This document shows, piece after piece, positions 17,689 to 35,358 of a stretch of 64,000 nt of DNA. The stretch comes from Candidatus Hydrothermarchaeum profundi. GTDB lineage: Archaea > Hydrothermarchaeota > Hydrothermarchaeia > Hydrothermarchaeales > Hydrothermarchaeaceae. The stretch lies in contig MTMF02000009.1 of the NCBI GenBank assembly GCA_002011125.2, positions 1,128,989-1,192,988 on the forward strand. Reading direction: 5' to 3'. The notes under the pieces are model-generated. The model saw only the letters and a list, made by a program, of their open reading frames with translations. It made no database searches and had not been told where the DNA came from. Numbering within the stretch: the first letter of the stretch is position 1; each line of letters starts with the position of its first letter. The position numbers and the translations under genes are program-made.

Positions 17689-18705
17689 TTATGAATCAAA
17701 ATAGGGATACCCCCTTATAGGAATTATAGTACCACATCTTGGACATTTATTCCCCTCCAGATGCCACTCGACTATCCCATAGCCTTCTCTCCTTATTAAC
17801 AACTTCTTACATTTTTCGCAATACGTATTCTTTCCTGGATGTGAAAAGATATTTTCTAGATACACATATTTTAGCCCTTTACTATATGCTAGATTTAATG
17901 CCTTCTCCATAATTTTTTCAGAAGGCGAATCAATTTTGTCCATTTTATAGCTTGGAAAGAATCTCAACAAGATCAGTGGAGAGTCAGCTTTTTTACTTAA
18001 ATGTATAGCTTCAGAAAGATTTTTTTCGTCATCATTAAAGCCGGGTATTATAACATAAACCAGCTCCAAATGCGTATTTTTACTTTTAAAAATATCTATT
18101 AAACGTAATAAATGAGTGTTATTAAATTTAAATCCACATACTTTAGAATAGAACTCTTGGTTACCCTTCACAGTCAAGGCAACCGCGTCTATATACTCAC
18201 AGATGGTTTTCAAGCCTTCAGGGGATATCAGTCCGTTAGTGGCAAATACGTTTAGGAGCCCATTTCCTTTAGCAAGCTCCATTATCTTAGCGTAGTATTC
18301 TATATTAAGAGTAGGCTCTGAATGGGTATATACTACACCTCTGCACTTCAGTTGTTTAGATGCTTCAACTATTTTATCGGCTTTAATATACTCCGCTCTA
18401 AATTCTTCCGGTTCTACTTGTGTTATACTCCAGGTTAAACAAAAAGCACATTTTAAGTTGCAACCAAAACTTCCTACAGTGATAAATCTGTGGTTAGGGT
18501 AAAAATGGTATAAAGGAGTTTTTTCAATGTAATCTGTGCTGAAACTTGAAAGCTTCTCATAGATTGTATTGTAAAGTTTTCCTTTTACATTAATTCTAAC
18601 CTTACAGAATCCTCTCTCACCCTCTTTTAAAAAACAATAGTGAGTACATAGCCGACAGTTTACTATGTTGTTTTTAAAAGAGCGATAACAGCAAGCTTCT
18701 TCCAT
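17689..18705 (-). CDS. AmmeMemoRadiSam-type (PflA-like) radical SAM enzyme
   Basis: N-terminal CRLCTHYC..GFCKVR, IEKTPLYHFYP, GCNLKCAFC, SEPT, IPGFND, C-terminal CEKC..IRREGY..CPRC. Confidence 0.85.
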   Translation of the reverse strand: MEEACCYRSFKNNIVNCRLCTHYCFLKEGERGFCKVRINVKGKLYNTIYEKLSSFSTDYIEKTPLYHFYPNHRFITVGSFGCNLKCAFCLTWSITQVEPEEFRAEYIKADKIVEASKQLKCRGVVYTHSEPTLNIEYYAKIMELAKGNGLLNVFATNGLISPEGLKTICEYIDAVALTVKGNQEFYSKVCGFKFNNTHLLRLIDIFKSKNTHLELVYVIIPGFNDDEKNLSEAIHLSKKADSPLILLRFFPSYKMDKIDSPSEKIMEKALNLAYSKGLKYVYLENIFSHPGKNTYCEKCKKLLIRREGYGIVEWHLEGNKCPRCGTIIPIRGYPYFDS

Positions 18706-18737
18706 AGATTAAGACATCTATTTAACTTTAAGAAACT

Positions 18738-19937
18738 TCACATTAATTTGCTTAAGAAATAGCTAATAAGTTTCTCAGGTTTTTCTTGATCGGCTTCTAT
18801 GGTCAAGAAAGGTATGTCCACTCGAGATTTAATCTCACGATATGCATTGTAGACAGCTGAAGTCCCAAAGGGGCATTGCTTATTATATATTACTGCATCG
18901 ATCTCGTGGTATTTTATAAGATCTAGAAAGTCCCTTGCGGTTTCCTTGATTGTACCCATTCCAGAATGTCCTGCGTACCATTTAGCGAGAGCTCTGAGAG
19001 GGTCAGAATCGTCTTTTATTAGCTTTCTATGAGAAGTAAATCTCTGGTAGGGCCATCCCGCCGTAACAATACCCTTACTCTCCTCTATCGCATAGAGGAA
19101 CTCATTTCTAAAGCCTCCTGCGAGTAGGATTTTTTTACCCTCATATCCAATTCCTTGTTCTACCCTCTCTTTAAGTTCATTTTTAAGGATATAGCACGCC
19201 CCGAGTAATTCCTGCGTTATGCCTCCGATATAGTCTGTACATATTACCTTCAAGTTGTAGATGTCAAAACTTTTAAGTGGATGGGGCTCTTGTTTTACTA
19301 GATTATCGATTTCCTGAAACACTCGTGTGACATCGTTTGTAAGTTCAATGCTCTGCTGAAGGCTTTCATCTGTTATTTCTGTGCCGGCTAGTTTCTCTAA
19401 TTTATCTTTTAAATAGCACAGTTTATCATATATGGCTCTTTCCCTCTCCTTCCTTGTGAGACCTTCCTCAATTTCTATAAAATCAAATTCCCATTCCTGG
19501 CCAATTTTACGTAGCAGTATATTCCACTCTGGGATCTTCGGCACGAAATCTGTTATCACTAGATCATACCCGGGGCATGCACCTAAAATGGGGGACCCAG
19601 CAGCACCGCTAACATATCTACATACGCATTCTCCGATTCCAAAATGATAAATCCACTTGCTGAGTTTATAATCTCCTTTTATAATCGTTCTATTTAAGTC
19701 CTCTCTCCTCTTGTATATTATTGAAAAAACGTTAGCTGCTCTCAATACCTCTATTGGAGGATTAGCGAGGGTACCTACAACTTTTCCGCCTTTTTTAATA
19801 TGTTTTGCCCAGTTGTCCCACACACTGGCATTATGCTGGTAAATTAGTCTTATTCCCTCTAATTCTCTGATATCGCTGTAGAGAGGTAGAGCTTTTTCAT
19901 CTACTGAAAGAGCAGTTCTTGAGTACATGTAAGACAA
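18738..19937 (-). CDS. 2-hydroxyacyl-CoA dehydratase (HgdB/FldB/BcrC-like) family subunit, divergent
   Basis: KVVG..PPIEVLRAA, CVCRYV, LEKLAGTEITDESLQQSIELTN, IDAVIY..QC, DIPFLTIEAD. Confidence 0.72.
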   Translation of the reverse strand: MSYMYSRTALSVDEKALPLYSDIRELEGIRLIYQHNASVWDNWAKHIKKGGKVVGTLANPPIEVLRAANVFSIIYKRREDLNRTIIKGDYKLSKWIYHFGIGECVCRYVSGAAGSPILGACPGYDLVITDFVPKIPEWNILLRKIGQEWEFDFIEIEEGLTRKERERAIYDKLCYLKDKLEKLAGTEITDESLQQSIELTNDVTRVFQEIDNLVKQEPHPLKSFDIYNLKVICTDYIGGITQELLGACYILKNELKERVEQGIGYEGKKILLAGGFRNEFLYAIEESKGIVTAGWPYQRFTSHRKLIKDDSDPLRALAKWYAGHSGMGTIKETARDFLDLIKYHEIDAVIYNKQCPFGTSAVYNAYREIKSRVDIPFLTIEADQEKPEKLISYFLSKLM

Positions 19938-19987
19938 CCCTATTAACCTCTCCTCTACGTCTATCTATCTAGCTATTTCTTGGATGA

Positions 19988-20980
19988 TTATTGTATAAAA
20001 GATTTTTGGACCTTTAATATCCCCTGCCGGAATTCTACTTTATCGTATATATCGTAGTAGAAGGTCATCTCTCTTTTTTCAATTTGCTTCATTCCTTTTT
20101 TGCCTAGTGTTATTTCTATACATGTTGAATTGAAATTGGGATCATATTGTGGTCTCCATAGAGCTATCTCCCAGAGGTCTTGTGGATAGAAATCTTCTTT
20201 ATATCTTGAGGTAATTGGCTCAAGGATTATCATAGTGCCTCCTTTTTTCACAACTCTACAAGCGTCAGCTAGAACTTCCTGAGGGTTGGAGACATATTCT
20301 AGGAGAGCATCACATACCACAAGATCAAAAGCTTCTTCCTTGAACGGAAAGCCAACCTCAGCATCATAAGCGATGAAACTAGCCGAGCTACTCCGTAGCC
20401 ATTCTTTAGTTCTTTTAAGGATTTCCATAGATATATTAAGGCATGTTAGACTACCCTTTTTGTCGTAGTATCTCAAGTATTCTTTAATTCCGGTAGATGC
20501 ATCTAAGACTAATAGTTCCCTAGTGGTTTTTCCCAATTCTAGGAAATTCTTAATCCTTTCTTCCCTTAGCTCAAAAGGCTCTGAGATATTGCCTTTTCCA
20601 AGAGGCATTTGCTCATATAAGTTGTAAAATTTTTTTCTTGGTATAAACTCTATTAAATATCCTCTATTCTTTGTAAGATTTCTAGCTCTCCCTCGGTTAT
20701 CTAAAAATACTTCATATTTCTCTTTATTTTTTTCAAATACCGCTATTATGGTCCTATCAGATTTCTCTAAATATGATAACGTAAAGGGACTTCCAGAGCC
20801 TAGGTATGGTCTAATCACGACCCAGCAGAAGCCTTCTCTCAACTCATTACTTGTGTGTAACTTGCAGAGGATACCCTCACTAAAGAGCTTTTTTATTTCA
20901 TAACCGTAATTAGTTTTTCTGCATTGTCCAAAAGTATGTATAGCTCTTTTCCTGCCTTTTCTAAGACCTATCCTCTGCAT
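19988..20980 (-). CDS. Class I SAM-dependent methyltransferase with N-terminal extension
   Basis: C-terminal VLDASTG, DAEVGFPFKEEAFDLVVC, LEYV, RVVKKGG. Confidence 0.75.
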   Translation of the reverse strand: MQRIGLRKGRKRAIHTFGQCRKTNYGYEIKKLFSEGILCKLHTSNELREGFCWVVIRPYLGSGSPFTLSYLEKSDRTIIAVFEKNKEKYEVFLDNRGRARNLTKNRGYLIEFIPRKKFYNLYEQMPLGKGNISEPFELREERIKNFLELGKTTRELLVLDASTGIKEYLRYYDKKGSLTCLNISMEILKRTKEWLRSSSASFIAYDAEVGFPFKEEAFDLVVCDALLEYVSNPQEVLADACRVVKKGGTMIILEPITSRYKEDFYPQDLWEIALWRPQYDPNFNSTCIEITLGKKGMKQIEKREMTFYYDIYDKVEFRQGILKVQKSFIQ

Positions 20981-21010
20981 AAGAATGATTAGAATAGTAA
21001 TTCTGGGATA

Positions 21011-21781
21011 TTATAATTTTCTAATTTTAAAAATTCCTGCACATGTTTTGCAGAGAACTTCACTGTTCCTTGTTATAGTTCTGGAACTCTCCACGTATTC
21101 TCCGCAGTCATCGCAGTTAATAGGGTTTGTTATATACTGTTGATCTAGAGGATATTGCAATTTTTTTGGGTCGACCTTTACGCTGGTGACAATGAATAGT
21201 TCGTCGTCATCCATTTTGTGCCACTTTCTTATTAACTTGGCTTCCTCTTCATCTAATTTTGCTCTTGCATTACGTGCTTCTTCTAGAGTTCTGTCTTTCA
21301 GTTTTAAATAAAATTCATTAAGTTTTTTTCCATACTCGATATGTTCTTTATCTACTTCTGGTCTGAGGGATACTCTAACAGCTTTACCTGTTCTACGATT
21401 ACAGAAAATAGAGGAGAACTTTCCATGATCTAGAAATACCAGTCTACCGCTCCCAAAGCTACATGTTGTTGCACTTGCAATGCCATCAGCAGCGCATGTA
21501 AGAATTTCCACTGCGGCACAAAGATCTTTCTTTCTCTCTAAATCTAGATAAGTAACAGCAAGTAAAGCCATTCTCGCCCCAAGATAAGAAGCCGTACAAA
21601 CATGGCCATGGATCTTTGGAACAATTTTGAGAGTTTCTTTTAGTGAAGGGAACTCTACTCTACCTTTTCTTTTTTTCTCTAAAAAAGGCTCAATATCAAA
21701 TTCTGGAATAGCCATAATTGGAATTTCAAATGAAGTTAGTGATAAAATTATCTGAGTGAAAATTTTATAAAAAGGAGCCAT
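21011..21781 (-). CDS. FmdE family protein with C4 zinc finger
   Basis: IHGHVCTASYLGARM, EILTCAADGI..TTCSFG, CDDCGE...CKTC. True start is probably the internal Met (MAIPEF). Confidence 0.85.
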   Translation of the reverse strand: MAPFYKIFTQIILSLTSFEIPIMAIPEFDIEPFLEKKRKGRVEFPSLKETLKIVPKIHGHVCTASYLGARMALLAVTYLDLERKKDLCAAVEILTCAADGIASATTCSFGSGRLVFLDHGKFSSIFCNRRTGKAVRVSLRPEVDKEHIEYGKKLNEFYLKLKDRTLEEARNARAKLDEEEAKLIRKWHKMDDDELFIVTSVKVDPKKLQYPLDQQYITNPINCDDCGEYVESSRTITRNSEVLCKTCAGIFKIRKL

Positions 21782-21802
21782 TCGAGGTGTAGATAGCGCT
21801 TT

Positions 21803-23137
21803 TCATGTAGCATGTAATGCAATGCTTCTGAAAGATTTCCTCTCCAGGCCCTCACTAATCTTAGTGACCATAGGCTTCTCTTCTAATACCTCTATATCAG
21901 GTAGTGTAGTGTTCATTATTCTTGTAATAGAATCGAAGAGCATTCTCCTCAAGTCGCTATTAGAAAAGTTCTGGGTTTCTATAACTGGATTGAGATGATG
22001 ATACTCACGCCATTGGCGAGTAAGAATCTTTATTCCGATATTCTCGGCTTTCCTGTAGAGATAACTTCCTGGGTAGGGAGTCTGAACTGCGAAAGTAACT
22101 TCTCCTCCTAGTTTTTTGATTTTTAAGGCTAATTTTAAAGTAGCTTTAAATTCCTTTTCAGTCTCAGTAGGATGTCCTATCATGAATCCACATACTGGTG
22201 TGATGCCTTCTTGGACAAAGTTTTTTACAATTCTTAGAACTTCTCTTATTCGAATACCTTTATTTATCAAGTCCACAAGTCTTTGAGAGCCGCTCTCTAT
22301 CCCAAACCGCCCTACTTTACAGCCTGCCTTGGCCATTGCCGTGATGACTTCACTGTCGACATGATCCAATCGTAGTTCAGTGAGCCATTCCATATCCAGT
22401 TTTTTAACAGAGTTGCAGATTTCTAATACTCTTCTTTTATCAAATGCGAAATTAGGGTCTATAATGAAAAAAGAATCAAACCCTAGACTTTGGATGTATA
22501 TTAACTCGTCAACGACTTTTTCAGCTTTTCTAAGCCTAAGACGGCCGGCAATACTTCTAGCACAACAATATCTACAGTAATACGCACATCCCCTGCTGGT
22601 AGCAACTGCGCCGGGGTATGTGTATTTCCACAAATCCAATAGATGACGTGCTGGTAGAGGTAAAGAATCAAGATCTTTAACTCTGTGGCTTCCGTTTTTT
22701 CGAATTTTGTTATTTTCTTTATACACCAGACCCTTTATTGTTGGTGTGGTCCCTTTTTCAAGAGCTTTAAGTAGCTCACCTATTACTAGTTCACCTTCAC
22801 CTACCACTACAAAGTCGAATCCGTCATCTAAAACCTCATCCGGCAAAGCAGTCGCGTGAGGCCCCCCTATTATAACTTTCTTTTTTTGCTTTTTAGCTAA
22901 ATAAAGTATCTTGAGAGCTTCGTGATAGTTATTGGTGTAGCAAGAGACTCCTATTAGTTTTGCTTTTTTTATTTTTCTTTCAAGTTTTTCATTTGTGACG
23001 TTTAAGTCGATTATACCGGTTTTAAAGCCTCCTTGTTCAGCTAAAGCGGCAATATAAGCGACTCCAAGTGGAGGAACAGTTATATCTGCTTCTGAAATAC
23101 TTCTAGACTGCCTAACTTCTACTAATAATAAATCCAT
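21803..23137 (-). CDS. Cobalamin-dependent radical SAM protein (class B methyltransferase-like)
   Basis: PPLGVAYIAA, IGGPHAT, VVGEGE, TSRGCAYYCRYC, FGIESGSQ, FMIGHPTET, TPYPGS. Confidence 0.92.
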   Translation of the reverse strand: MDLLLVEVRQSRSISEADITVPPLGVAYIAALAEQGGFKTGIIDLNVTNEKLERKIKKAKLIGVSCYTNNYHEALKILYLAKKQKKKVIIGGPHATALPDEVLDDGFDFVVVGEGELVIGELLKALEKGTTPTIKGLVYKENNKIRKNGSHRVKDLDSLPLPARHLLDLWKYTYPGAVATSRGCAYYCRYCCARSIAGRLRLRKAEKVVDELIYIQSLGFDSFFIIDPNFAFDKRRVLEICNSVKKLDMEWLTELRLDHVDSEVITAMAKAGCKVGRFGIESGSQRLVDLINKGIRIREVLRIVKNFVQEGITPVCGFMIGHPTETEKEFKATLKLALKIKKLGGEVTFAVQTPYPGSYLYRKAENIGIKILTRQWREYHHLNPVIETQNFSNSDLRRMLFDSITRIMNTTLPDIEVLEEKPMVTKISEGLERKSFRSIALHAT

Positions 23138-23138
23138 C

Positions 23139-23399
23139 TCAAATCTCCACTAGTCCTAAAGTTTTTAGTTTCTCAATAAAATCCGCAATTTCTTTTTCGG
23201 TAGCCGCCCTAAATTTTCTTTTATATAACTCAACTATTCCTGTTTCATCAACTTCCCCTATCAATTTCCATATAAAAGTAGCTTTTTTATTGAGTATGTA
23301 AAGACCCTTATTAGTTGCAATATATGTCTTTTCTCTTTCTTCTTTCCATAATACCTTGGCTTTAATAGGGACTGCATTATTTAATTTTATAGAAGACAT
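23139..23399 (-). CDS. PqqD-family protein (RiPP recognition element-like)
   Basis: 86 aa; LYILNKKATFIWKLI and DFIEKLKTLGLV fit the PqqD pattern. Ends 1 nt before the B12 radical SAM start. Confidence 0.75.
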   Translation of the reverse strand: MSSIKLNNAVPIKAKVLWKEEREKTYIATNKGLYILNKKATFIWKLIGEVDETGIVELYKRKFRAATEKEIADFIEKLKTLGLVEI

Positions 23400-23509: not shown

Positions 23510-24274
23510 TTAGAACGAGATACTTTGTATCTCTCTCTTCCATCGTGTTAGTCTCCTCTCTACTCTAACCATGATTTCATTAAAGAAAAATCCAATAAAG
23601 CCGATAGTGAATATCCCTGCGAACATTTTATCAGTTTTAAAAGTGTACTCTGCTTCTATTATCATTAAACCTAAGCCAGATCTAGCTCCTATCATTTCAG
23701 TCACGATCAGCAGAATCAGAGATACTGCCAAACTTAATCTAAGGCCCGTCATTATCGAGGGGAAGGCAGAAGGTAGTACTATTTTAGTTAAAGTTTGAAG
23801 CCTATTAGCTCCAAAAAGTTTAGCAACTTTCAGGAGGTTAACATCTACCTGTCTTACTCCCGATATAGTGTTCAATATGATAGGAAAATAGCAAGCGAAA
23901 GCTATAATCATTATCTTCGATAAGTTACCTATACCGAACCACAATATTGCAACCGGAATTAAAGCAACCGCGGGTATCGGCCTGAAAAGTTCAACTAGAG
24001 GGTTCGTCAAATCTTCGACTGTATTAAACCATGCTATAAGAATACCATGAGGTACTGCTATAATTGCCGCCAATAAGAAACCTAAAATAGCTCTATAAAG
24101 GCTTATGGTAGTATGTGTTATTAGTTCGCCACTTTGAAGTAATTTTATGATAGTGAGAAATATCTTACTTGGAGCAGGTAGAAAAATTGGGTTCACTAAT
24201 CCAAAATAGCAAATCCCTTCCCACACTAGGAAAAATCCCACAAGCGAGAAGGTCTTTCGTACTTTTCTATTCAT
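23510..24274 (-). CDS. NitT/TauT-family ABC transporter permease
   Basis: FLPAPS, RPIPAVALIP..ILWFGIG, EAA-loop region AKLFGA, LPSAFPSIMTGLR, EMIGARSGLG. Confidence 0.92.
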   Translation of the reverse strand: MNRKVRKTFSLVGFFLVWEGICYFGLVNPIFLPAPSKIFLTIIKLLQSGELITHTTISLYRAILGFLLAAIIAVPHGILIAWFNTVEDLTNPLVELFRPIPAVALIPVAILWFGIGNLSKIMIIAFACYFPIILNTISGVRQVDVNLLKVAKLFGANRLQTLTKIVLPSAFPSIMTGLRLSLAVSLILLIVTEMIGARSGLGLMIIEAEYTFKTDKMFAGIFTIGFIGFFFNEIMVRVERRLTRWKREIQSISF

Positions 24275-25227
24275 AGGAATCTATAGTCAATAAATTCATT
24301 TACAGTAACGTTTCTTCCAAGTGATTCAGGATCATATTTTTTAATTGCATCGATAATTTTTTTGAATGATTCATCGCTTACACGGCCAGAGGGATTAAAT
24401 TCTGGCCAAGGTATCTTCTTAGTTACTTCTATAGGAAGTCCCGTATCCATGGCTGCTATCTCCGGTACTTTATCTGGATTATCTATTGCCCACTGCAATC
24501 CCCTAAGATAGGCTTTAATGAAACTTTTTACCTTATCTGGATGGTTTTGTATGAAATCTTCGGTAAAGAATACCATTCCAAAGGGAACTCCCTCAGGGAA
24601 GACATCAGCTGGAGTGAAAACAACGTTTACTTTGTCTTCTAATTGAGGCATGGCCATCGGGAATACGAAAGCAGCATCTACTTCCCCATTTAAAAGAGCT
24701 TGAGGCATATTTGGGATTTTTACCTGCGTTATAGTAACTTCTGTATTGGGGTCTATCCCATTTTGCTCTAATCCTACTCTTAAGGTTAAATCAAGGAGGG
24801 TGCCTAATCGATGTACTGCTATTGTCTTTCCTTTTAGATCCGCCATATCCTCTATACCTGACGACTTTAAAACAACGAGATAGTCCCCGGGTTTTTCTTT
24901 AGTTCCTACTTCGCCTACTGCAACCACCTTAATTGGTACATCTTTTGACACCGCTCTAATTATCGCAGGAGTGGAGCCTATGACTCCTCCATCAAGTTCC
25001 CCTGCGATAACTGCTTCAATTACAGACGATCCTCCTCTAAAGCTTATCCATGAAATGTTCAATCCCTCCTCTTCATAAAATCCGTTATACATAGCGTAGA
25101 CTTCTGGTTGTGCAACGCCACCTAAGTATCCGATCCGAATAGTTGGTTCCTCTTTTTCTATGGGGCTAGAGGTAATACAACCTATAGTAACTATAAATAA
25201 TAGAATTCCTATAAGAAATCTCATCAA
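24271..25227 (-). CDS. NitT/TauT (SsuA/TauA-like) ABC substrate-binding protein, probable lipoprotein
   Basis: Signal peptide with TIGC lipobox; IRIGYL, GFYEEEGL, DLKGKTIAV, ALLNGEVDA. Confidence 0.88.
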   Translation of the reverse strand: MMRFLIGILLFIVTIGCITSSPIEKEEPTIRIGYLGGVAQPEVYAMYNGFYEEEGLNISWISFRGGSSVIEAVIAGELDGGVIGSTPAIIRAVSKDVPIKVVAVGEVGTKEKPGDYLVVLKSSGIEDMADLKGKTIAVHRLGTLLDLTLRVGLEQNGIDPNTEVTITQVKIPNMPQALLNGEVDAAFVFPMAMPQLEDKVNVVFTPADVFPEGVPFGMVFFTEDFIQNHPDKVKSFIKAYLRGLQWAIDNPDKVPEIAAMDTGLPIEVTKKIPWPEFNPSGRVSDESFKKIIDAIKKYDPESLGRNVTVNEFIDYRFL

Positions 25228-27736: not shown

Positions 27737-27786
27737 TATAGTATGTTGGATTGCTCACAAAAATATAAAATTAATGGAAGTATCAT

Positions 27787-28215: not shown

Positions 28216-28484
28216 TAGAAGAAATCGAAAAATATGTAGCTAGGATATTTGAGAACTTAAGTCCTTCCCAAAAAGCAACTTTAAAAGCTCTCATGTTTTC
28301 TGGATTTAAAGGGGAACGAGACCATATATTGCTCGAGCTTCTAAAAGAAATGGGAGAGGATAAAATATCTCATAGTGAACTCACTGAGTCTTTTACTTGT
28401 TCATTCGAGGGGGTACTTGTTAATTATTCGAGGATAAAGCCGGAATATTATAGAGCTGTTAGAAAGTTGCTCATGAAAAGTTAG
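28212..28484 (+). CDS. Hypothetical protein
   Basis: 90-aa ORF translationally coupled to the upstream gene; no recognised motif. Confidence 0.55.
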   Translation: MIEEIEKYVARIFENLSPSQKATLKALMFSGFKGERDHILLELLKEMGEDKISHSELTESFTCSFEGVLVNYSRIKPEYYRAVRKLLMKS

Positions 28485-29055
28485 AATAGCAAGGTATGCA
28501 AAGTAGTTTTCCATTTTTAACCTTAACATAATCTTTAAGAACAACCTCGCCGCACCTTTGGCATATCTCATGTTTTAGTGATGGTTCTTCAGCTGGTTTA
28601 AAAAGCGGAGCTTCGGAGAAAGAAAATAGCTTTTCATCGGGGAGCTTATTAAGTTCTTCTACAATCTCTGCGCCGGATTTAAAATGTTCTCTTGCTTCTT
28701 CTTCCCTATTCGAAGGCGGAAGCTTCTTAACTTCTTGTCCTTTTAATCCAAATTCCAAGACTTTTTCTAGGATGTCTCGTTTTACACTTATCCTAACAGA
28801 CCTACTATTAGCTAGATCATAGAAAGATGCAGCGAATTTTCCATAATCTAAGCAATAAAGATTATTTTTACCATATGTAGTTCCACAGACGTATTGTAAG
28901 CCATCTGAAAGACAGTTTTTGTATTCTACCACTGCTATAAGCTTTACACCGTTCTCTCTGGGTCTTCCAAGCACTTCAAGCGCCTTTTTACCCATTCTTA
29001 TGCCGAGAGCATACATCGGACACATGTGTCCGTGAAACCATCGAGGATCCTCCAT
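28471..29055 (-). CDS. FmdE family protein with C4 zinc finger
   Basis: FHGHMCPMYALGIRMG, EYKNCLSDGLQ..CGTTYGK, CQRCGE...CIPC. Confidence 0.88.
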   Translation of the reverse strand: MEDPRWFHGHMCPMYALGIRMGKKALEVLGRPRENGVKLIAVVEYKNCLSDGLQYVCGTTYGKNNLYCLDYGKFAASFYDLANSRSVRISVKRDILEKVLEFGLKGQEVKKLPPSNREEEAREHFKSGAEIVEELNKLPDEKLFSFSEAPLFKPAEEPSLKHEICQRCGEVVLKDYVKVKNGKLLCIPCYSNFS

Positions 29056-29092
29056 GATATCTTTTTTAATACCTTATTATAAAGAATTTGTG

Positions 29093-29818
29093 ATGAAGAA
29101 AAAAATACAGGAATACTACTCCCGGAGGGCTGAGACCTATAGTGATTTAGATGCCCCAGCGACAATAGTCTCCGCAGTTAGATTTAGAGGGGTATTGGAT
29201 CATTTAAAAATAATATCTCCAAAAGAGAATGAAAGGATACTCGACATAGGGTGTGGTACTGGAAGATTTCTACAACCATTTTCTAAGGCAAAGGTTTGTG
29301 GTGTTGATCTCACTCTTAATATGCTTAATAAAGCAAAAGGACATGCTCCTCTAGTAAGGGCGGACGCGGAACATCTCCCTTTTAAAGATGCATCTTTTGA
29401 CATCGCTCATTCAGCAGGGTTATTAGGCATCTATCGTTCGTCAAAAGTTCTAGAGGAGGCGGCGAGAGTCGTTAAGGAAAATGGTAAAATCTATATCAGT
29501 TTTCCAGCTGCAACCAGCGTGAGTGGGATAGTTTCATTAATATTTCAAAAATTATTCCGGTATAATCCTTCGCTATTTGACTATTGGTATACCAAAAAAG
29601 ACATACGGAGAATGTTTCCTCCAGAAGTCGAGCTAGTTAAAATTTATAGGTTGGGATGGGAGCCTCCTTTCCAAAGGTGGTTTAAAGAATTGGAATCTAG
29701 GAAGCTTGTTAAACTCTTCTTATTTCTTGAGAATATTTTGAAAAACAAGCCTTTTTTTAAATATTTTTGTGCGAGATTTTTAGCGGTAGGCGTAGTTGGA
29801 GCTAGTAGAAGCTCTTAA
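29093..29818 (+). CDS. Class I SAM-dependent methyltransferase
   Basis: ILDIGCGTG, GVDLT, ADAEHLPFKDASFD, RVVKENG. ATG 29093 preferred over 29054, which overlaps the divergent gene. Confidence 0.9.
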   Translation: MKKKIQEYYSRRAETYSDLDAPATIVSAVRFRGVLDHLKIISPKENERILDIGCGTGRFLQPFSKAKVCGVDLTLNMLNKAKGHAPLVRADAEHLPFKDASFDIAHSAGLLGIYRSSKVLEEAARVVKENGKIYISFPAATSVSGIVSLIFQKLFRYNPSLFDYWYTKKDIRRMFPPEVELVKIYRLGWEPPFQRWFKELESRKLVKLFLFLENILKNKPFFKYFCARFLAVGVVGASRSS

Positions 29819-29925
29819 ATAAGGCGGCATCTGTGTTATTATCTTATAGGATAGAATTTTAAAAAAATTAATATAATTTGACCGATTTTTCTCTATTTGA
29901 TTAGATTATTGGAGGTGAAAATCTA

Positions 29926-30342
29926 ATGTCTTTGCCGGAGGATTTCCATGAGATATTTAGCAATTATTGTGCTTCTGGCAGACCTATAGTATGGGTCTCT
30001 ACGATTGATGACGGAACACCGCATCTTGTTCCCGTATGTTTTGTTAAGGTTTTAGGGGAAGATAAGATTCTAATCGCTAATGTCTTTATTAAAAAGACGG
30101 TTAGGAACATAGAGAAAGGCTCTAAAATAGCAGTCGGGGCAGTTGTAAAAGAAGACGGTTTTAAGGGGTACATGATTAAAGGTAGAGCAGAAAACCTAAA
30201 AGAAGGAAAGCTTTTTGAGGACTTCGCTAAAGAGGTTTCAGATAAAAGTGGCGGTAGAAGGAAGCCAAAATCTGCAGTACTAGTAACGATAGAAGAAGTT
30301 TATTCTTTAAAACCATATGAAGGGCGTAAGAGGATTATTTAA
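29926..30342 (+). CDS. Pyridoxamine 5'-phosphate oxidase-like FMN-binding protein
   Basis: VSTIDDGTPH, KKTVRNI, GYMIKGRAE, EEVYSL. Strong SD GGAGGTGA at 29911. Confidence 0.85.
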   Translation: MSLPEDFHEIFSNYCASGRPIVWVSTIDDGTPHLVPVCFVKVLGEDKILIANVFIKKTVRNIEKGSKIAVGAVVKEDGFKGYMIKGRAENLKEGKLFEDFAKEVSDKSGGRRKPKSAVLVTIEEVYSLKPYEGRKRII

Positions 30343-30344
30343 TA

Positions 30345-30740
30345 TCACCATAACTCTTTTATCTTACCTAGGATGTATTTTTCAATCCCGAACTCTGCGT
30401 CTTTATTCGGGATCATAACCAGAGCCTTCCATGGAATTCCTAAGTCCCAGACAGCTCTCGCCCTTCTATGACCGTCGATCAGTATATCTTTATCAGGCTT
30501 TCTGAGAATGATTATAGGACAGGCATAGCCATGTTCTATTGCCTTCTTTATTTCCACAACTTTTTTAGCAAAGGTAACGCGGTTCTCTTCTCCCGGAAAG
30601 GTGTAGTGGACATCTCCTAGCTTACTTTTATCTATTATCTCCTCTTTTTCCTCAAATTTCAATTCTTCATGGACAGCTTCATAAGACCTTATTACATCCT
30701 TAAACAGGATCTTCTCCTCATATTCCTGAATCAATGTCAT
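30345..30740 (-). CDS. Stand-alone ParB/sulfiredoxin-like domain protein
   Basis: AIEHGYACPIII..ILIDGHRRARA. ATG 30740 preferred because the called start overlaps the upstream AAA gene. Confidence 0.72.
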   Translation of the reverse strand: MTLIQEYEEKILFKDVIRSYEAVHEELKFEEKEEIIDKSKLGDVHYTFPGEENRVTFAKKVVEIKKAIEHGYACPIIILRKPDKDILIDGHRRARAVWDLGIPWKALVMIPNKDAEFGIEKYILGKIKELW

Positions 30741-30774
30741 GTTAATCCAATATATTTCTTCATTTTTAAAGCTT

Positions 30775-31653
30775 TCAAAAATTGTATTTATGGATGCAAT
30801 CTTCTGAGATGATTTTGTTGTAGTCCTCTGCCATCGCATGTGATAACCAGGGTTTTATTTTTTCTTTTGCTTCTAGCATATCCCTCATGGTGACATAGGA
30901 TGAGTTGTTGCCTGACCTTTCTAGCGTGTTTAGAATCGCTTTCCTACATAGAGCTTCTAAGTCCCATCCCACATAATATTCTGTGATTTCAGCGATTTTT
31001 TTTAAGTTCACATCATTAGCTAGTTTAGCATTTCTCAGATAATATTTCAAAATTTTTAATCTATCGCTTTTATTTGGCATTGGAACGTATATTTTTCTAC
31101 CTAACATGTTGGTTCTGGTAAAAGCCTGATCTAGAACGTCTATTCGATATGAAGATGCCGCTACTATTATGCTATCGACAGAGGCGACTCTCTCTACTTC
31201 TTTATAGACAGTTTGATGAACTTGGGGAGTTCCAAATTTATCAGGCTTGCCTGTTGTCGTGCCATCCTTCCACCTATAATCTGCACCTTCTCTAGGACAA
31301 AGCCAATCTATATCCATTAAGTGGACTACGCAGGGGGCATTCTTTAATGCTAACTGGAATCCCTTTTTTATGACTTCTGGCTTGTCTGTGCATTCTCTCC
31401 CCCTTATTAAAATATAATTAGTTCCAGCCTCCTTTGCTGCAGCCTCTATCAAATGTCCTTTTCCAGTACCTAGCGGTCCCCATACTATCACTCCGGTTGG
31501 CGGAGTTAATGAAGCTTTTTTTAATTCTTCACGATATTTTAGAGGAACTACGATCATCTCTCTAAATTTTTCTTTAACATTTTCGTAACCAGCTATTTGT
31601 TCAAAACTAAACCTCGGTTCTCTCATATCTATGTATATCTGGTCGTAGTCCAT
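30775..31653 (-). CDS. Single-domain Cdc48-like AAA+ ATPase, paralog 2 (degenerate)
   Basis: FEQIAGY, GPLGTGKG, HLMDID, RIDVLDQAFTR..MLGRKIYVPMP, YVGWDLE. ATG 31653. Confidence 0.88.
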   Translation of the reverse strand: MDYDQIYIDMREPRFSFEQIAGYENVKEKFREMIVVPLKYREELKKASLTPPTGVIVWGPLGTGKGHLIEAAAKEAGTNYILIRGRECTDKPEVIKKGFQLALKNAPCVVHLMDIDWLCPREGADYRWKDGTTTGKPDKFGTPQVHQTVYKEVERVASVDSIIVAASSYRIDVLDQAFTRTNMLGRKIYVPMPNKSDRLKILKYYLRNAKLANDVNLKKIAEITEYYVGWDLEALCRKAILNTLERSGNNSSYVTMRDMLEAKEKIKPWLSHAMAEDYNKIISEDCIHKYNF

Positions 31654-31666
31654 AGGAGTCCCCCTT

Positions 31667-32539
31667 TTAGTACATGTATCTGTGCTTACACTCTTCTTTG
31701 TAAATCTCTTCATATCTGCTTATAAGTTCTGGTGAAAGTGAGGGAGGTATCCTTTTCATCGCTTCCTTAAAGTGTCGTAGTGATACTTTTTCGAACGTCT
31801 TGCCATTCTCCTTTATTGCGATTAAGGTGGCTTCTCGTGGGAGAGATATTAAATCCGAACTAGAATAGTTTTCAGTAATTTCAGATATTACCTCAGGCGA
31901 TGCATCTTCTGCGAGAGGAATTTTTTTAAGGGACAGCCTTAGAATTTCTAATCTATCATAGTAGTCTGGCGCGGGAACGTATATTTTTCTATCTAATCTT
32001 CCATTACGGAGTAAGGCAGGGTCGATTATATCTGGGCGGTTGCTTCCTCCAATCGTAATAACTTTATCATTTTTTGCAGATTTATCGATTTCACGTAAGA
32101 ATCTCCTAGTAGTGTTAGGAGGAGCTATTTTACGTGGGGGTTCTAAAAGACCCGATTGAGCTTCTCGCCTTGGGGCTAATACTTCGATTTCATTAATGAA
32201 AATAACACATGGGGCAATCTTAGTTGCATCTTTGTACAGGTGTGTTATCTGATGTTCGTTTTCAATTATCCTAGAAGCTTCTACGGAGATATACATAGCA
32301 TTGGCATCTGAAGCAGCCGCTTCGGCTAAAGTACGCATGCTTGTTTTTGGGGGACCCCACATTAGTATTCCATTTCTTGGTCTTAGGTCAGCTTTTTTAA
32401 AAGCCTCTGGATATTTTAAGGGTAAGGATACCATTTCTTCTAATCTTTTTTTTACCTCTGTAAAGCCTCCAATATCTTCAAATTTGATTACCGCTTCCCT
32501 TATTTTATAGCACTGACCGGGATCGAGTATCTCGCACAT
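31667..32539 (-). CDS. Single-domain Cdc48-like AAA+ ATPase, paralog 3 (Walker A degenerate)
   Basis: FEDIGGF, GPPKTSMRT, FINEIE, NRPDIIDPALLRNGRLDRKIYVPAPD. Confidence 0.88.
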   Translation of the reverse strand: MCEILDPGQCYKIREAVIKFEDIGGFTEVKKRLEEMVSLPLKYPEAFKKADLRPRNGILMWGPPKTSMRTLAEAAASDANAMYISVEASRIIENEHQITHLYKDATKIAPCVIFINEIEVLAPRREAQSGLLEPPRKIAPPNTTRRFLREIDKSAKNDKVITIGGSNRPDIIDPALLRNGRLDRKIYVPAPDYYDRLEILRLSLKKIPLAEDASPEVISEITENYSSSDLISLPREATLIAIKENGKTFEKVSLRHFKEAMKRIPPSLSPELISRYEEIYKEECKHRYMY

Positions 32540-32541
32540 AG

Positions 32542-33603
32542 TTAGGCCTTCCCAAATTTTCTTGAAGCATTTACCATTGCATAAAGGTTTTTAAAAGGAG
32601 TCTGCGAGTGGAGACCACAACTACTAGAGACTATATAACTATACTTCCCAGCTTTATTGATGCAGTTTTTGACGTTCTCTTCAACATCTCGTTCAGACCC
32701 CTTGTGGAGAGTGCCCACAGAGACGTTTCCGAAAAGAGCGACTTTATTTCCAACTTCTTTCATTGCTTTATTAAGATCTACTGACTCATCTACACTCAAG
32801 CAAACTGCCCCAGTCTTTGCGAGGTCTTTGAGTATAGGGGAAGTGTCTCCACATATGTGTATAATAACTTCCCCCCCGTACTTCCTTAGAGCGCTACAAA
32901 CTTTTTTTTCATAAGGATATGCGAACTCCCTATAATGTTTTGGTGAGATAACTTGCGATGCTGCAGAAGGATCTTCGATCATGATTCCGTGAGTACCTAT
33001 ATCTATTTGCTTCTTCCCGATCTCTATAGCAGCCTCAGCCATGAAATTTAAGAGCTTGTGAACTTCATTTTTTCTTATACTCATATCCAGCATGAAGTTT
33101 TCCATACCTCGAATCCATTCAGCGGCATAATGAAATGGTGCAGGCACTTTACTGCAGATATATACCTCCCCCTTAGTTATCTTAAGTAGTTCTTGCAGGG
33201 GCTCCCACCTTTCTTCATTATCTGTGTCGGGCATTTTTAATTCGTCTAGCTGTGAATAGTCACTTATAGCAGGTTCCCTCACAGCAGGTCCTCCATTAAG
33301 AGGTATCTTAAGCTTAGTTCCCCACTCAGTTGGCAATACCGCATATCCATCAATTATTTTTAAGCTCTTACGTTCCTCTTTGGTAATTCCTTGTATTGGC
33401 TGATGATTGAATATCCAGTCGTATCCGTACTTCCTCTGTGCTTTTAACTGTCCTTTTACGTAGAGTTCATTATTAGTAACGTATTCCCAAGGCTTTACTC
33501 CTAAAACTTTAGAGGCATGAGGGACATTGACCATTGGGGCTACCGGTAGATAATCTAGTGAATCTCCTTCTAACGCAGCTCTGAATCTTTCAACAGATTT
33601 CAT
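32542..33603 (-). CDS. MtaA/CmuA (UroD-fold) methylcobamide:thiol methyltransferase
   Basis: ERFRAAL, PVAP, IRGMENFMLDM, EDPSA..VISP, zinc ligands IHICG and SSSCG, GNV. Confidence 0.88.
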   Translation of the reverse strand: MKSVERFRAALEGDSLDYLPVAPMVNVPHASKVLGVKPWEYVTNNELYVKGQLKAQRKYGYDWIFNHQPIQGITKEERKSLKIIDGYAVLPTEWGTKLKIPLNGGPAVREPAISDYSQLDELKMPDTDNEERWEPLQELLKITKGEVYICSKVPAPFHYAAEWIRGMENFMLDMSIRKNEVHKLLNFMAEAAIEIGKKQIDIGTHGIMIEDPSAASQVISPKHYREFAYPYEKKVCSALRKYGGEVIIHICGDTSPILKDLAKTGAVCLSVDESVDLNKAMKEVGNKVALFGNVSVGTLHKGSERDVEENVKNCINKAGKYSYIVSSSCGLHSQTPFKNLYAMVNASRKFGKA

Positions 33604-34226
33604 TTCTTCTCCCTCATGATCCTCTCGCAGAGAAGTACTGCTTTTCTAGCGTCACTGCCATAACCTTGGACACCAAGCTCTTTTGCATACTCTTCAGTAG
33701 CGGCAGCTCCCCCAATAATAAAAGCATATTTTTCCCTTAAACCATGTTTTTCGAATTCTTCTATTACCCTTTTCATCCCCTCAATAGTGGTGGTCATCAT
33801 TGCGGATAATCCTACAATATCCGCCCTGAACTCTTTTGCCTTCTCTACGAAGTCTATGGCAGGTATATCTCTTCCAATATTGTACACCTTAAAGCCTGCT
33901 CCTTCTAAGAACATTGCTACGAGGTTCTTTCCTATATCATGAACATCGCCTTCGACACTTCCTATTACTATTCTTCCTGTGGCCTCTGATTTTTCATAGT
34001 CTAATAGAGGCTTAAGGATATCAAGGCCTCTCTGCATAGCATAAGCAGATAATAATGTTTCAGGAACATAGTACTCTTTTTTCTCAAATTTTTCTCCTAC
34101 TATCTCCATGCCTGAGATCATTTCTCTGAGGATTTCCTCAGGTTTAAGGCCATTATCAAGAGAGTTTCTAATGAGAGTTTCTATGTTATCTATATCCCCA
34201 TTAATGACGGCTTCTTTAATGGACAT
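33600..34226 (-). CDS. Methyltransferase corrinoid protein (MtaC/MtbC-like)
   Basis: Cap domain GMEIVGEKFE..YYVPE; EGDVHDIGKNLV, GLSAMMTTT, IIGGA. Confidence 0.95.
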   Translation of the reverse strand: MSIKEAVINGDIDNIETLIRNSLDNGLKPEEILREMISGMEIVGEKFEKKEYYVPETLLSAYAMQRGLDILKPLLDYEKSEATGRIVIGSVEGDVHDIGKNLVAMFLEGAGFKVYNIGRDIPAIDFVEKAKEFRADIVGLSAMMTTTIEGMKRVIEEFEKHGLREKYAFIIGGAAATEEYAKELGVQGYGSDARKAVLLCERIMREKK

Positions 34227-34341
34227 TCTACACCTGAATTCTACTTATTATTAACAATGGAAAAAGCTGCTATTGGTCTCTCTCCTTCCATTCTTATATA
34301 CTTTTTATATTTTCCCGTTAATATGTAAATTTATAAGATTA

Positions 34342-35358
34342 TTAGCGTCTTGTATTGTAGGAGACTTTCACCATCTCTGTTATATTTTCTTCTCTAGCAC
34401 TTCGTGGGACTACGCATCCAGAACTTAGGACTACCCTTTCCTGTAGTTCCACGACTTTCTCAGAGATTTTTCTAATTTCTGATGGAGTGCCTCTAAAGAG
34501 TAGATTGGAAGGTACATTTCCCCATGCAGGTATTTTTTCCCAGACTAATTTTATGTCAGTCATTTCATCGAAACTCAAGCAACTCGCTCCGGTTCTACTC
34601 ACATCGTCTAGTATTTTACTGATATCTCCGCATATATGGAGTATTACTGGTACATCCTTTGTTATTTCTTTTATAAGTCTGCGTTCATATTTGAAGACAA
34701 ATTTTCGGTAATCTTCAGGGGAAATTAGTGATGAAGAAGCTGATGAATCTGGTATAAAAATCGCATGTGCTCCTACTTCAATCTGAGCTTTGGCGATTTC
34801 TAGGCAGCGATCAAGTGAAAAATCGAGTAGTTTTAAGATAAAATCTCTATCTTTTTTCATCTCTACCAAAAATTTTTCAAGAGGATATAAGAAGGTTGAA
34901 GCAAAAGTAAATGGAGCTCTAGTTGTACCGCAAACAAAATCTTCTTTTTCAAGCATATATCTTAGCGGCGCCGTCCTTTCTTTTGAGAATTGATCTGGGA
35001 TATTAATTTTGTCAAGCTCTTCCTTGCTTTTTAACGCAGGCTCTAAAGTTTGAGGCGACCCATGGGAAGATAGCAGTATCTTAGTTCCTAACTCTAACTG
35101 TAGAATAACTCTATCGTCTTGGTAAATTACATTTTTCCTCTCCCACTTGGTGATTCCTTGAAACGGTTGATGAGCCCAGACCCAATCATACCCATGATGA
35201 CGTTTACATGCAATCTGGGCTTCTGCATATTTTTTATTATCCAACACATACTCTTGGGGACTAATACCATATATTTTTGAAGCATAACCAGAGGTTATTA
35301 GAGGCGCAACCGGGACTCTCTCAACTTTCTTGCCTGTGAGGGTTTCTAGTATATTCAT
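34342..35358 (-). CDS. Second MtaA/CmuA (UroD-fold) methyltransferase
   Basis: RVPVAP, APFT, PDSSAS..LISP, LHICG, WGNV, LSSGC. Confidence 0.86.
   Translation of the reverse strand: MNILETLTGKKVERVPVAPLITSGYASKIYGISPQEYVLDNKKYAEAQIACKRHHGYDWVWAHQPFQGITKWERKNVIYQDDRVILQLELGTKILLSSHGSPQTLEPALKSKEELDKINIPDQFSKERTAPLRYMLEKEDFVCGTTRAPFTFASTFLYPLEKFLVEMKKDRDFILKLLDFSLDRCLEIAKAQIEVGAHAIFIPDSSASSSLISPEDYRKFVFKYERRLIKEITKDVPVILHICGDISKILDDVSRTGASCLSFDEMTDIKLVWEKIPAWGNVPSNLLFRGTPSEIRKISEKVVELQERVVLSSGCVVPRSAREENITEMVKVSYNTRR

Follow-up and report, generated by a model that had tools for sequence, protein, structure and literature searches.

Corrinoid methyltransferase systems have a central place in the anaerobic cycling of C1 compounds and sulfur, and among those described the closest to the locus reported here is the type 1 mlp (Sdm) cluster (Kountz & Balskus, bioRxiv 2023, PMC10418091, where the Sdm work on M. 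voltae is cited). According to that source, such a cluster holds a corrinoid protein, several MtaA-like methyltransferases (Mlps), a RACE activase and often a double-cubane cluster protein, and is linked to methyl-sulfur/selenium metabolism and to methyl-selenide use; most of its members, not all, show the selenium-utilisation trait, and its methyltransferases come from the Mlp2 and Mlp3 clades. The paper assigns a His-Cys-Cys site to the sulfur- or selenium-directed members of the UroD superfamily (O-demethylases replace a Cys), and tallies 367 organisms with mlp clusters, a list that could bear on whether the archaea considered below have already been counted. We present here a block of 22 open reading frames (ORFs) at positions 17689-35358 of a stretch of 64,000 nucleotides from Candidatus Hydrothermarchaeum profundi, called the window throughout (G000:C9:1128989-1192988), in which a corrinoid module of this kind stands together with three degenerate AAA paralogs, FmdE-like proteins and several radical S-adenosylmethionine (SAM) enzymes. 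The block is most of one lineage-restricted, jointly inherited Hydrothermarchaeota gene system of about 20 genes. Corrinoid methyltransferase clusters are of a known kind; the AAA trio would be a new accessory. In what follows G000 is the genome that holds the window (2.19 Mb in 19 contigs, 97.65% complete, archaeal), G001 onwards are its relatives, and a carrier is any genome that holds the system. The ORFs were assigned to families by Pfam and NCBIfam profiles with the curated cut-offs applied. The corrinoid core and the AAA genes are these:

34342-35358 (-): MtaA/UroD-like zinc methyltransferase, 338 aa, its gene opening the core operon (Pfam URO-D, 172 bits)
33600-34226 (-): corrinoid (B12-binding) protein, His-on (Pfam B12-binding, 101 bits, and B12-binding_2)
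32542-33603 (-): MtaA/UroD-like zinc methyltransferase, 353 aa (Pfam URO-D, 217 bits)
31667-32539 (-): AAA290, CDC48-D2-like AAA paralog without a P-loop (Pfam AAA, 77.6 bits)
30775-31713 (-): AAA312, third AAA paralog (Pfam AAA, 53.9 bits)
26849-27736 (-): AAA295, the only paralog with an intact P-loop, GPPGGGKT (Pfam AAA, 85.2 bits)

The block shares with type 1 mlp clusters, as described in PMC10418091, a monomeric corrinoid protein with two or more His-Cys-Cys MtaA-like methyltransferases of the UroD superfamily, the lack within the cluster of a tetrahydrofolate (H4folate) or tetrahydromethanopterin (H4MPT) methyltransferase, carriers that are anaerobes, and a double-cubane-type protein of the HGD-D superfamily, which in mlp is an often associated component. 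It differs from them in four respects: its two methyltransferases come out as sister paralogs (in a tree without labelled Mlp sequences), whereas those of mlp come from separate Mlp lineages; the mlp cluster contains a RACE gene and the block does not, although the module of G012 has one adjacent; there is no selenium trait in G000; and the block adds three AAA paralogs, radical SAM enzymes and pairs built on FmdE. A word search of the main text of PMC10418091 found none of "AAA", "ATPase", "FmdE" and "radical SAM", and our literature searches returned no paper on an AAA partner of a corrinoid methyltransferase, nor any on this cluster in Hydrothermarchaeota. The first-pass annotation of this DNA had stated that no known pathway combines these families; type 1 mlp is partly similar, and the statement holds for the AAA trio, for which the literature searches gave no counterpart.

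Judged from its sequences, the core is a bona fide corrinoid methyl-transfer module. The corrinoid protein has orthologs of 54-67% identity in eight relatives, with its D-x-H-x-x-G conserved across nine sequences. The most conserved core gene is that of the 353-aa methyltransferase, whose 37 homologs at E<=1e-20 are all 54-100% identical (the two that carry organism labels are Hydrothermarchaeales) and whose motifs HICGD and SSSCG are invariant in nine sequences; orthologs of the 338-aa methyltransferase, at 47-52% identity, adjoin the corrinoid gene or AAA295 in relatives. For both UroD-like proteins the best PDB match is MtaA (4AY7), with H-x-C-G and the distal Cys aligned, and His-Cys-Cys is present in 10/10 aligned members of the two families (5/5 in the 338-aa family). 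A FastTree phylogeny of 38 sequences places the two families as sisters and keeps them separate from proteins with an MtaA or MtsA label; next to them in the tree come unnamed and bacterial proteins, for example one labelled Azotosporobacter soli. With the soluble coenzyme M methyltransferases of methanogens (MtaA, MtbA, MtsA) the block proteins have in common a corrinoid partner, the UroD fold and its H-x-C...C zinc site, and they differ from them by scoring below the curated cut-offs and by forming a separate clade. Neither mcrA nor ComA was found in G000; the ComA result has little weight, as the control M. acetivorans also came out without ComA. A methanogen origin was considered and ruled out, given the lack of mcrA and the labels of the homologs, which are Hydrothermarchaeales or unclassified archaea.

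The AAA proteins had been called degenerate paralogs from the letters alone, and the motif alignments agree. Each has a single AAA domain followed by a lid (Pfam AAA and AAA_lid_3) within about 290 residues, and scores highest against the D2 half of CDC48. We read the motifs from an alignment with three proteins of G000 that resemble CDC48 or the proteasome-activating nucleotidases (PAN), together with consensus sequences for each family (10 sequences for AAA295, 9 for AAA290, 8 for AAA312, and a separate AAA290 alignment of 21); the names of the motifs (Walker, sensor, pore loop, arginine finger) are used as generally known, and their positions are those of the alignments. In all three window proteins pore loop 1, K-[WY]-[VFI]-G-E, is replaced by a five-residue gap and the Walker B "DE" is missing, and the Walker and sensor changes are conserved within each paralog. 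AAA295 keeps GPPGGGKT in 10/10 sequences, with an invariant Walker B "NE" in the same 10 and a Tyr at sensor 1 (mean column identity of the 10-sequence alignment, 79%). AAA290 has lost the P-loop in 9/9 sequences, and in 21/21 of the larger alignment, while keeping the R-x-G-R region; its window member has "NE" at Walker B, a position that varies in the family, and its termini are invariant, with MCE at the start and EECKHRYMY at the end. AAA312 shows G-x-G-K-G at Walker A in the window (Lys-Gly in at least 70% of 8 sequences), a Walker B "MD" invariant in 8 sequences, and the loss of one arginine. One member of the trio is predicted to be able to bind ATP, and two to have degenerate sites, although these two retain positions of the arginine finger. 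All three end in C-x-H-x-Y-x-[FY], a Cys-x-His-x-Tyr-x-aromatic tail that is flexible in the model. The AlphaFold2 (AF2) model of AAA290 has a mean predicted local distance difference test (pLDDT) value of 91.4, with residues 1-10 and 287-290 of low confidence, and its best Foldseek match is p97 D2 (3cf0; template modelling (TM) score 0.81).

The trio thus resembles the D2 half of CDC48/p97 and the proteasome-activating nucleotidases in fold, AAA lid, arginine-finger region and conserved aromatic C-terminal tail, and departs from them in having no N-domain, a single AAA domain, a deleted pore loop 1, no Walker B "DE", a P-loop in only one member, and three co-inherited paralogs. Its tail also differs from the HbYX motif, which has its Tyr at position -2, in that the Tyr is at -3. 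Because pore loop 1 is lost and the active sites are mostly degenerate, we infer that the three proteins form a mixed ring in which few sites are active and which would be unable to thread a polypeptide. The three paralogs make up one clade in the tree, and each paralog family is monophyletic, which argues that the triplication is older than the spread of the genes among carriers. AAA312 always follows AAA290; when the window AAA312 is compared by tblastn with the loci of relatives, it aligns from residue 21-23 in six of eight and from residue 1 in two (G010, G011), and translation probably begins in fact at the Met near 31653, the point from which most orthologs can be aligned.

The joint inheritance of the block was surveyed in 41 genomes (G000 and 40 relatives) with six marker proteins as queries. 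As these relatives share kinship and are not independent samples, we give the co-occurrence as a pattern and not as a statistic. Besides the AAA paralogs, the markers are found among the following features:

27787-28215 (+): 142-aa conserved protein, four-Cys zinc ribbon and beta-rich domain, without Pfam or NCBIfam match
28212-28484 (+): 90-aa conserved protein, winged-helix-like (a lead only), without Pfam or NCBIfam match
28471-29055 (-): FmdE194, FmdE-like with C-terminal zinc ribbon, 194 aa (Pfam FmdE, 114 bits)
29054-29818 (+): class I SAM methyltransferase, 254 aa (Pfam Methyltransf_11, 69 bits)
25318-26370 (+): variant radical SAM enzyme, MSMEG_0568-like (NCBIfam variant_rSAM, 163.6 bits, cut-off 125)
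26360-26830 (+): Lrp/AsnC-type protein, overlapping the end of the variant radical SAM gene (Pfam HTH_24/HTH_AsnC)
21011-21781 (-): FmdE256, FmdE-like with zinc ribbon, 256 aa, partner of the 330-aa methyltransferase (Pfam FmdE, 102 bits)
19988-20980 (-): MT330, class I SAM methyltransferase, 330 aa (Pfam Methyltransf_11, 53.9 bits, residues 159-252 only)
18738-19937 (-): HGD-D superfamily protein, distantly related to the double-cubane cluster protein (Pfam HGD-D, 94.1 bits)

The short AAA paralogs and the zinc-ribbon gene were each found in 10/41 genomes, orthologs of FmdE194 (at least 191 bits; next best 81.7) and of the variant radical SAM enzyme (at least 330 bits; next best 226) each in 9/41, those of the HGD-D protein (65-78% identity) in 12/41 and those of MT330 (at least 183 bits) in 13/41. 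All of these positives fall in the same 13 genomes, which belong to five family-level groups, and the other 28 genomes have no marker at all. Seven genomes have six markers, two have five and two have four; one further genome (78% complete) has two, and another (62% complete) a single weaker match. Orthologs of the 353-aa methyltransferase were moreover traced at contig ends in two more incomplete carriers. Gains or losses of the set recur across several families and genera. The idea that the block is one dedicated system, for which recurrent co-occurrence had been proposed as a check, is supported: the check came out positive, with all marker matches in the same 13/41 genomes, and the block behaves as a unit of inheritance.

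Gene order is also kept, in sub-modules. The first is [338-aa methyltransferase]-corrinoid-353-aa methyltransferase-AAA290-AAA312; the order from the corrinoid gene to AAA312 is the same in every relative with enough contig, and the gene immediately downstream of the 353-aa methyltransferase is AAA290, both in the window and in 9/9 relatives whose contig extends far enough. The second is AAA295, whose neighbour in relatives is the zinc-ribbon gene in some cases and the 338-aa methyltransferase in others. The third is made of the zinc-ribbon and winged-helix genes followed by the divergent pair FmdE194/254-aa methyltransferase, and the fourth of the variant radical SAM gene, after which the Lrp-like gene comes directly in three relatives (orthologs of 56-71% identity) as it does in the window. 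FmdE256, MT330 and the HGD-D gene are the fifth, with a PflA-like radical SAM gene after them in two genomes. A B12-binding radical SAM/PqqD pair precedes the fifth sub-module in the window and in G026, and stands beside the variant radical SAM gene in G012, while an importer adjoins the latter gene in the window and two relatives (G003, G010). The most complete counterpart is G010, which has 18/22 block genes in mirror order on a single contig of 17.8 kb; only the genes for the B12 radical SAM enzyme, PqqD, PNPOx and the ParB-like protein are missing, and the place of the 338-aa methyltransferase is taken by a divergent UroD-like gene (29% identity).

The spread of the system appears narrow. 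A scan with a pattern of the AAA290 ends over 185,579 species, each represented by one genome, gave 18 matches, of which nine were confirmed, all in archaeal metagenome-assembled genomes; by title, five of these nine loci are of Hydrothermarchaeota type and four are from an "archaeon" or "Methanobacteriota archaeon". In a library of 5.8 billion proteins, 11/12 organism-labelled homologs of the short AAA proteins among the matches listed are archaeal (Hydrothermarchaeales, "archaeon" or "Methanobacteriota archaeon"). The remaining one, an AAA290-type protein of 54% identity (P0045) on an 11-kb contig, has the source label "Thermodesulfobacteriota bacterium", which could be due to mis-binning or to gene transfer.

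We think that the most probable reading, to which we give a probability of about 45%, is a corrinoid system for compounds of the methyl-thiol type with a non-threading AAA accessory ring, the other enzymes serving the substrate or the cofactor. The His-on corrinoid protein would shuttle a methyl group between the two sister MtaA-like zinc methyltransferases, and the likeliest methyl partners would be methyl-thioether and thiol compounds; these are favoured because His-Cys-Cys is a thiol/selenol-directed site and G000 has no selenium trait. Both the RACE activator beside the module in G012 and the best PDB match to MtaA count for corrinoid methyltransferase chemistry, and the TauA/SsuA-like substrate-binding protein of the importer, with orthologs confined to carriers, is a hint of a sulfonate or other sulfur compound. 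The trio would then be a hetero-oligomeric, non-threading ring in which nucleotide binding clamps, assembles or remodels methyltransferase components, for example in cofactor loading or exchange rather than in protein unfolding, and the co-inherited FmdE pairs, radical SAM enzymes, HGD-D protein, zinc-ribbon/winged-helix proteins and importer may make, import or process a sulfur-bearing substrate or cofactor. That the ring acts as assembler or remodeller of the core, a role close to the assembly or reactivation machine suggested in the first-pass annotation, is something we infer by analogy. B12 and tetrapyrrole enzymes have several ATP-dependent helpers: the RACE/RamA activators, the reactivases of diol dehydratase and ethanolamine lyase, and the AAA+ subunits of Mg- and Co-chelatases, in which an active subunit is paired with a degenerate one. 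These helpers are ASKHA proteins, Hsp70-like proteins or helix-2-insert AAA+ proteins, and we liken the trio to them by analogy only, claiming no homology. A thiol or sulfur partner had been proposed in the first-pass annotation: the invariant His-Cys-Cys and the TauA/SsuA-like binder would fit it. The suggestion that uptake is part of the system stands in so far as importer orthologs occur only in carriers, and is weakened by their presence in only 5/12 of these.

A bolder version, which we regard as doubtful, would make the trio a hetero-hexameric non-threading ring whose flexible Cys/His tails dock onto the methyltransferase module, and thus an ATP-driven partner of B12-dependent methyl transfer. 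The tails would perhaps also dock on the double-cubane-like Fe-S protein, which in G000 is without its usual activator; the ring might serve as cofactor loader, reactivase or gate for low-potential electrons, with the zinc-ribbon protein as a stand-alone adaptor. The double-cubane cluster protein (DCCP) works with an ATP-dependent reductase. The HGD-D protein of the block shares with DCCP (6ENO/7YYL) the HGD-D fold and several Cys, but it is very distant from it, and no BcrAD_BadFG-type (HgdC-type) activator was found in G000, G001, G003, G010, G012 and G019. Matches in G011 and G032 are below the cut-off, and those over it are in 17/41 genomes, carriers (G018, G024, G026, G031) and non-carriers alike. 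The trio is a candidate stand-in for an HgdC-type activator. As a replacement for the RACE activator it was considered and ruled out: RACE-type genes (RACo_C_ter) occur in 24/41 genomes, trio-bearing or not, among them 9/10 trio carriers (the exception is G003, 62% complete), and one of them adjoins the core module in G012. G000 has two, at C9:1595142 and 1883906, that is 0.4-0.7 Mb away, and none in the block. A complex of AAA295 with the zinc-ribbon protein was predicted with values of 0.61, 0.60 and 0.00 (median 0.60) against 0.00 for the best of three controls, with contact agreement between runs of at least 0% and a partner pLDDT of at least 70; this is weak support and a lead only, the mark having been reached in calibration by 58/80 solved complexes and 2/110 mismatched pairs, and at values of 0.60 or less by 7/80 and both mismatches.

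Several observations weigh against the methyl-thiol-type system with its accessory ring. Both methyltransferases fall under every curated MtaA-type cut-off: against the MtaA/CmuA model TIGR01463 (cut-off 235.4) the 353-aa protein reaches 152.0 bits and the 338-aa protein 128.9 bits, and against another NCBIfam model the former reaches 178 bits with a cut-off of 244. The importer has no ATPase gene beside it. RACE activators are common throughout the order, in genomes with the trio and in those without it, so classical reductive activation does not depend on the trio. Linkage is helpful and not required, since G026, nearly complete in 20 contigs, has its modules split over three contigs. G031 (93% complete) keeps modules 3-5, with FmdE, radical SAM and HGD-D genes, and has neither the AAA trio nor an ortholog of the 353-aa methyltransferase, so either the two halves of the system are separable or the assembly missed the AAA/353-aa part. 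SAM-dependent methyltransferases and several radical SAM enzymes are odd for a catabolic demethylase and better fit a biosynthetic reading, and five relatives also carry a PqqD-fused radical SAM/SPASM protein of peptide-maturase or heme-maturase type.

The last two points lead to the biosynthetic alternative, which we consider rather unlikely: the radical SAM enzymes, the FmdE/SAM-methyltransferase pairs and the HGD-D protein would build a modified peptide or a small cofactor, to which the corrinoid module would add, or from which it would remove, one methyl group, while the AAA ring handles the peptide or its carrier. SAM-dependent methylation is anabolic in character. A PqqD-type recognition element does stand beside a radical SAM gene in the block, that of the B12-binding enzyme, as in clusters for ribosomally synthesised and post-translationally modified peptides, and this arrangement recurs in two relatives; no precursor peptide gene was noticed, though no search for one was made. 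The SPASM operon of the five relatives is co-directional at L051 (G024:C4, 9902-18252), with matching stretches at L048, L054, L055 and L062. At L051 it consists of the PqqD-fused radical SAM/SPASM gene, a second radical SAM/SPASM gene, an rSAM0568 paralog and genes for a methyltransferase, a deacylase of AstE/AspA type and a TPR protein, and in G024, mapped gene by gene, it continues into the variant radical SAM, zinc-ribbon and winged-helix genes and then the FmdE194/methyltransferase pair. However, its SPASM enzymes score best against heme or heme d1 maturases, below the cut-off (about 220 versus 500 bits), so that a peptide substrate is not implied, and the operon is absent from G000, where the nearest homologs are 31-34% identical and lie elsewhere. 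A DrrAB-type exporter beside modules in four genomes, and the retention by G031 of modules without the corrinoid/AAA part, would suit biosynthesis as well; the AAA proteins, in contrast, are without the pore loop needed for peptide threading.

It has also been suggested that the compound might be a metal or metalloid one, in which case the block would (de)methylate species of As, Se, Te or Hg, with FmdE proteins as metal carriers, ArsM-like methyltransferases and removal of the product by the exporter adjacent to the block. We find this improbable, and the selenium branch in particular has lost ground: G000, at 97.65% completeness, has no tRNA-Sec among its 45 tRNAs (ARAGORN) and no SelD over the cut-off (best 81.7 versus 125 bits). 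The low-scoring ArsM-type and selenoprotein-methyltransferase matches of both class I methyltransferases would favour it, but the ArsM-type ones amount to 25-36 bits against cut-offs of 263-575; similarly, the best NCBIfam match of the permease is SaoP (model "ABC_perm_U"), which we take to be a selenoprotein family, whereas the binding protein is like sulfonate binders and not like binders of metals or oxyanions. The tie of type 1 mlp clusters to methyl-selenide use (PMC10418091) and the metal-rich habitats from which Hydrothermarchaeota are described (PMC6946796) are in line with such a role. Finally, the whole might be a chance neighbourhood of unrelated small operons. The 22 ORFs do form seven transcription units on alternating strands, the modules of G026 are on separate contigs, and two genes of the block (PNPOx and ParB-like) are not conserved with the rest. 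This explanation is nevertheless largely refuted, and in our opinion very improbable, given that the six markers are near all-or-none over the 41 genomes with carriers in five family-level groups and that G010 retains nearly the whole order; the co-occurrence is, as said, a pattern among kin.

If the methyl-thiol-type reading is correct, a pore-less, disabled AAA trio would be a new kind of accessory for corrinoid methyltransferases, whose known helpers are RACE-type activators, and would illustrate clearly how an AAA ring can give up threading in nature. The system itself adds about 20 lineage-specific genes to the uncultured Hydrothermarchaeota of the subseafloor and of hydrothermal sediments, and points to unrecognised organosulfur or cofactor chemistry in them.

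The two small conserved genes at 27787-28215 and 28212-28484 had been missed in the first-pass annotation. The zinc-ribbon protein has four invariant Cys in a 10-sequence alignment and an AF2 pLDDT of 90.1. Foldseek against the PDB gave no match for it at E<=0.001 and the Atlas no usable relative, which does not prove a new fold; with VIA-align, run over 48,161 chains, the highest Z was 4.9 for 46 residues, with generic beta-sheet rows only. The 90-aa protein has eight orthologs, always just downstream of the zinc-ribbon gene, and its structural neighbours in the Atlas are winged helices of PadR, MarR and ArsR type (TM 0.5-0.72).

That each of the two FmdE proteins is paired with a SAM methyltransferase suggests carrier-plus-enzyme pairs. 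FmdE194 has its best PDB match in 2GVI (67.5 bits), and its partner, the 254-aa methyltransferase, has seven orthologs, beside FmdE194, and a best NCBIfam match to the DVU_1556 family of 64.6 bits (cut-off 155). The annotated starts of these two divergent genes touch at 29054-29055 and leave zero intergenic space for a promoter; some orthologs of the methyltransferase align only from residue 10-12, and its true start may be the Met at about 29093. FmdE256 adjoins the MT330 ortholog in relatives, and about 150 N-terminal residues of MT330 are outside its Pfam match. A third paralog with FmdE and zinc ribbon, 173 aa, is found in the window at 13863-14384 (+), 3 kb outside the block and beside a PAC2 proteasome-assembly-like gene, and there is a fourth FmdE copy on contig C8 of G000.

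The remaining genes of the block, and an exporter just outside it, are as follows:

17689-18705 (-): PflA-like/AmmeMemoRadiSam-type radical SAM enzyme (TIGR04337, 232.7 bits, cut-off 220)
21803-23137 (-): B12-binding radical SAM enzyme (Pfam B12-binding, 85.6 bits, and Radical_SAM, 79.6 bits)
23139-23399 (-): small PqqD-like protein, encoded upstream of the B12 radical SAM enzyme (Pfam PqqD, 28.3 bits, cut-off 23.4)
23510-24274 (-): TauC/SaoP-like ABC permease (Pfam BPD_transp_1, 106 bits)
24271-25227 (-): TauA/SsuA-like (NMT1) substrate-binding protein, optional accessory (Pfam NMT1, 108 bits)
29926-30342 (+): PNPOx-like flavoprotein (Pfam PNPOx_N, 50 bits)
30345-30839 (-): small protein with a faint ParB-like signal (NCBIfam about 20 bits, E 3e-4; without Pfam match)
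35371-37084 (+): DrrA/DrrB-type ABC-2 exporter pair, just outside the block, possibly linked

The gene content listed from the letters alone, with its three different kinds of radical SAM enzyme (PflA-like, B12-binding and the NCBIfam "variant_rSAM"), is borne out by Pfam and NCBIfam, except for the ParB/Srx-like call, for which there are only the NCBIfam matches of about 20 bits. The system does not include PNPOx and the ParB-like gene among its conserved parts: neither has a tblastn match at E 1e-8 in the 35 stretches fetched from relatives.

As to the radical SAM enzymes, the PflA-like one has a 64% ortholog after the HGD-D gene in G010, 52% orthologs near AAA295 in two relatives, and two more paralogs in G000 (35-36% identity). 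An AmmeMemoRadiSam system is defined by a radical SAM enzyme partnered with AMMECR1 and Memo genes; neither is among the annotated neighbours of the block, and no genome-wide search for them was made. All NCBIfam matches of the B12 radical SAM enzyme are below cut-off (the best is TIGR04013, 151 versus 251), and it has orthologs of 51-55% identity in two relatives, with PqqD-like ORFs at the matching position in two; in the window operon of this pair the only sizeable gaps are of 110 and 90 bases. Directly after the pair, two relatives encode a protein of 230-235 aa that by eye is MfnB-like (L050 18592-19284 (-) and L056 8814-9521 (-)), which would hint at methanofuran. G000, however, has a single homolog of it (44% identity), which lies some 52 kb ahead of the window, at C9:1076383-1077063. 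The variant enzyme has C-x7-C-x2-C in its sequence and reaches 182.9 bits against the MSMEG_0568 family, below the cut-off of 303.7; it gave no Pfam match and no PDB sequence match. The HGD-D protein is isolated, with only six matches at E<=1e-10 among 1.84 billion representatives; it scores 54.7 bits against NF040772 double_cubane (cut-off 350), and its best PDB match, 6ENO/7YYL at 27 bits, has several Cys aligned.

The binding protein of the importer is closest in the PDB to taurine-binding TauA (6SSY, 77 bits) and then to SsuA, and its orthologs (at least 334 bits; next best 128) are in 5/41 genomes, carriers only. For the permease both NCBIfam scores, SaoP 180 and TauC 171 bits, are below cut-off. 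Orthologs of the ABC-2 exporter (48-58% identity) adjoin system modules in three relatives; it was unusable as a phyletic marker, its family being present in 34/41 genomes. A further DrrA/DrrB-type pair, 42-44% identical to it, lies 11 kb beyond at 48199-49928 (-) of the window. The block is flanked by genes of housekeeping type, with eIF2-alpha, ribosomal protein L44e, PAC2 and DUF531 on one side and, on the opposite side, HisRS, a histidine kinase, a membrane protein and the ABC-2 exporter.

Some methyltransferase-related genes of relatives have in-frame stop codons and are otherwise full-length: a TGA in the RACE gene beside the module (G012:C32:8622-9362), a TAA in a 353-aa methyltransferase ortholog (G019:C139:485-1531), and a TAG both in a 330-aa methyltransferase ortholog (G031:C94:16779-17768) and in a UroD-like gene (G031:C18:2851-3648). 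These stops could be due to pyrrolysine, sequencing errors or decay. G000 itself has one tRNA-Pyl (anticodon CTA) at C9:1321583-1321652, outside the window and adjoining an MtaA/MtbA-like gene at about C9:1322108. A code in which all TAG codons are pyrrolysine was considered and ruled out; since TAG still terminates 283/1502 long open frames, this is ordinary pyrrolysine use and the genome is not recoded. A second methyltransferase island, of conventional type, is present about 0.4 Mb from the block, outside the window (G000:C9:1582000-1600600). Two MtrH genes lie in it together with several UroD-like genes and genes for corrinoid proteins, a RACE activator and two TauC-like permeases, and it also gave a weak match to the binding protein of the block.

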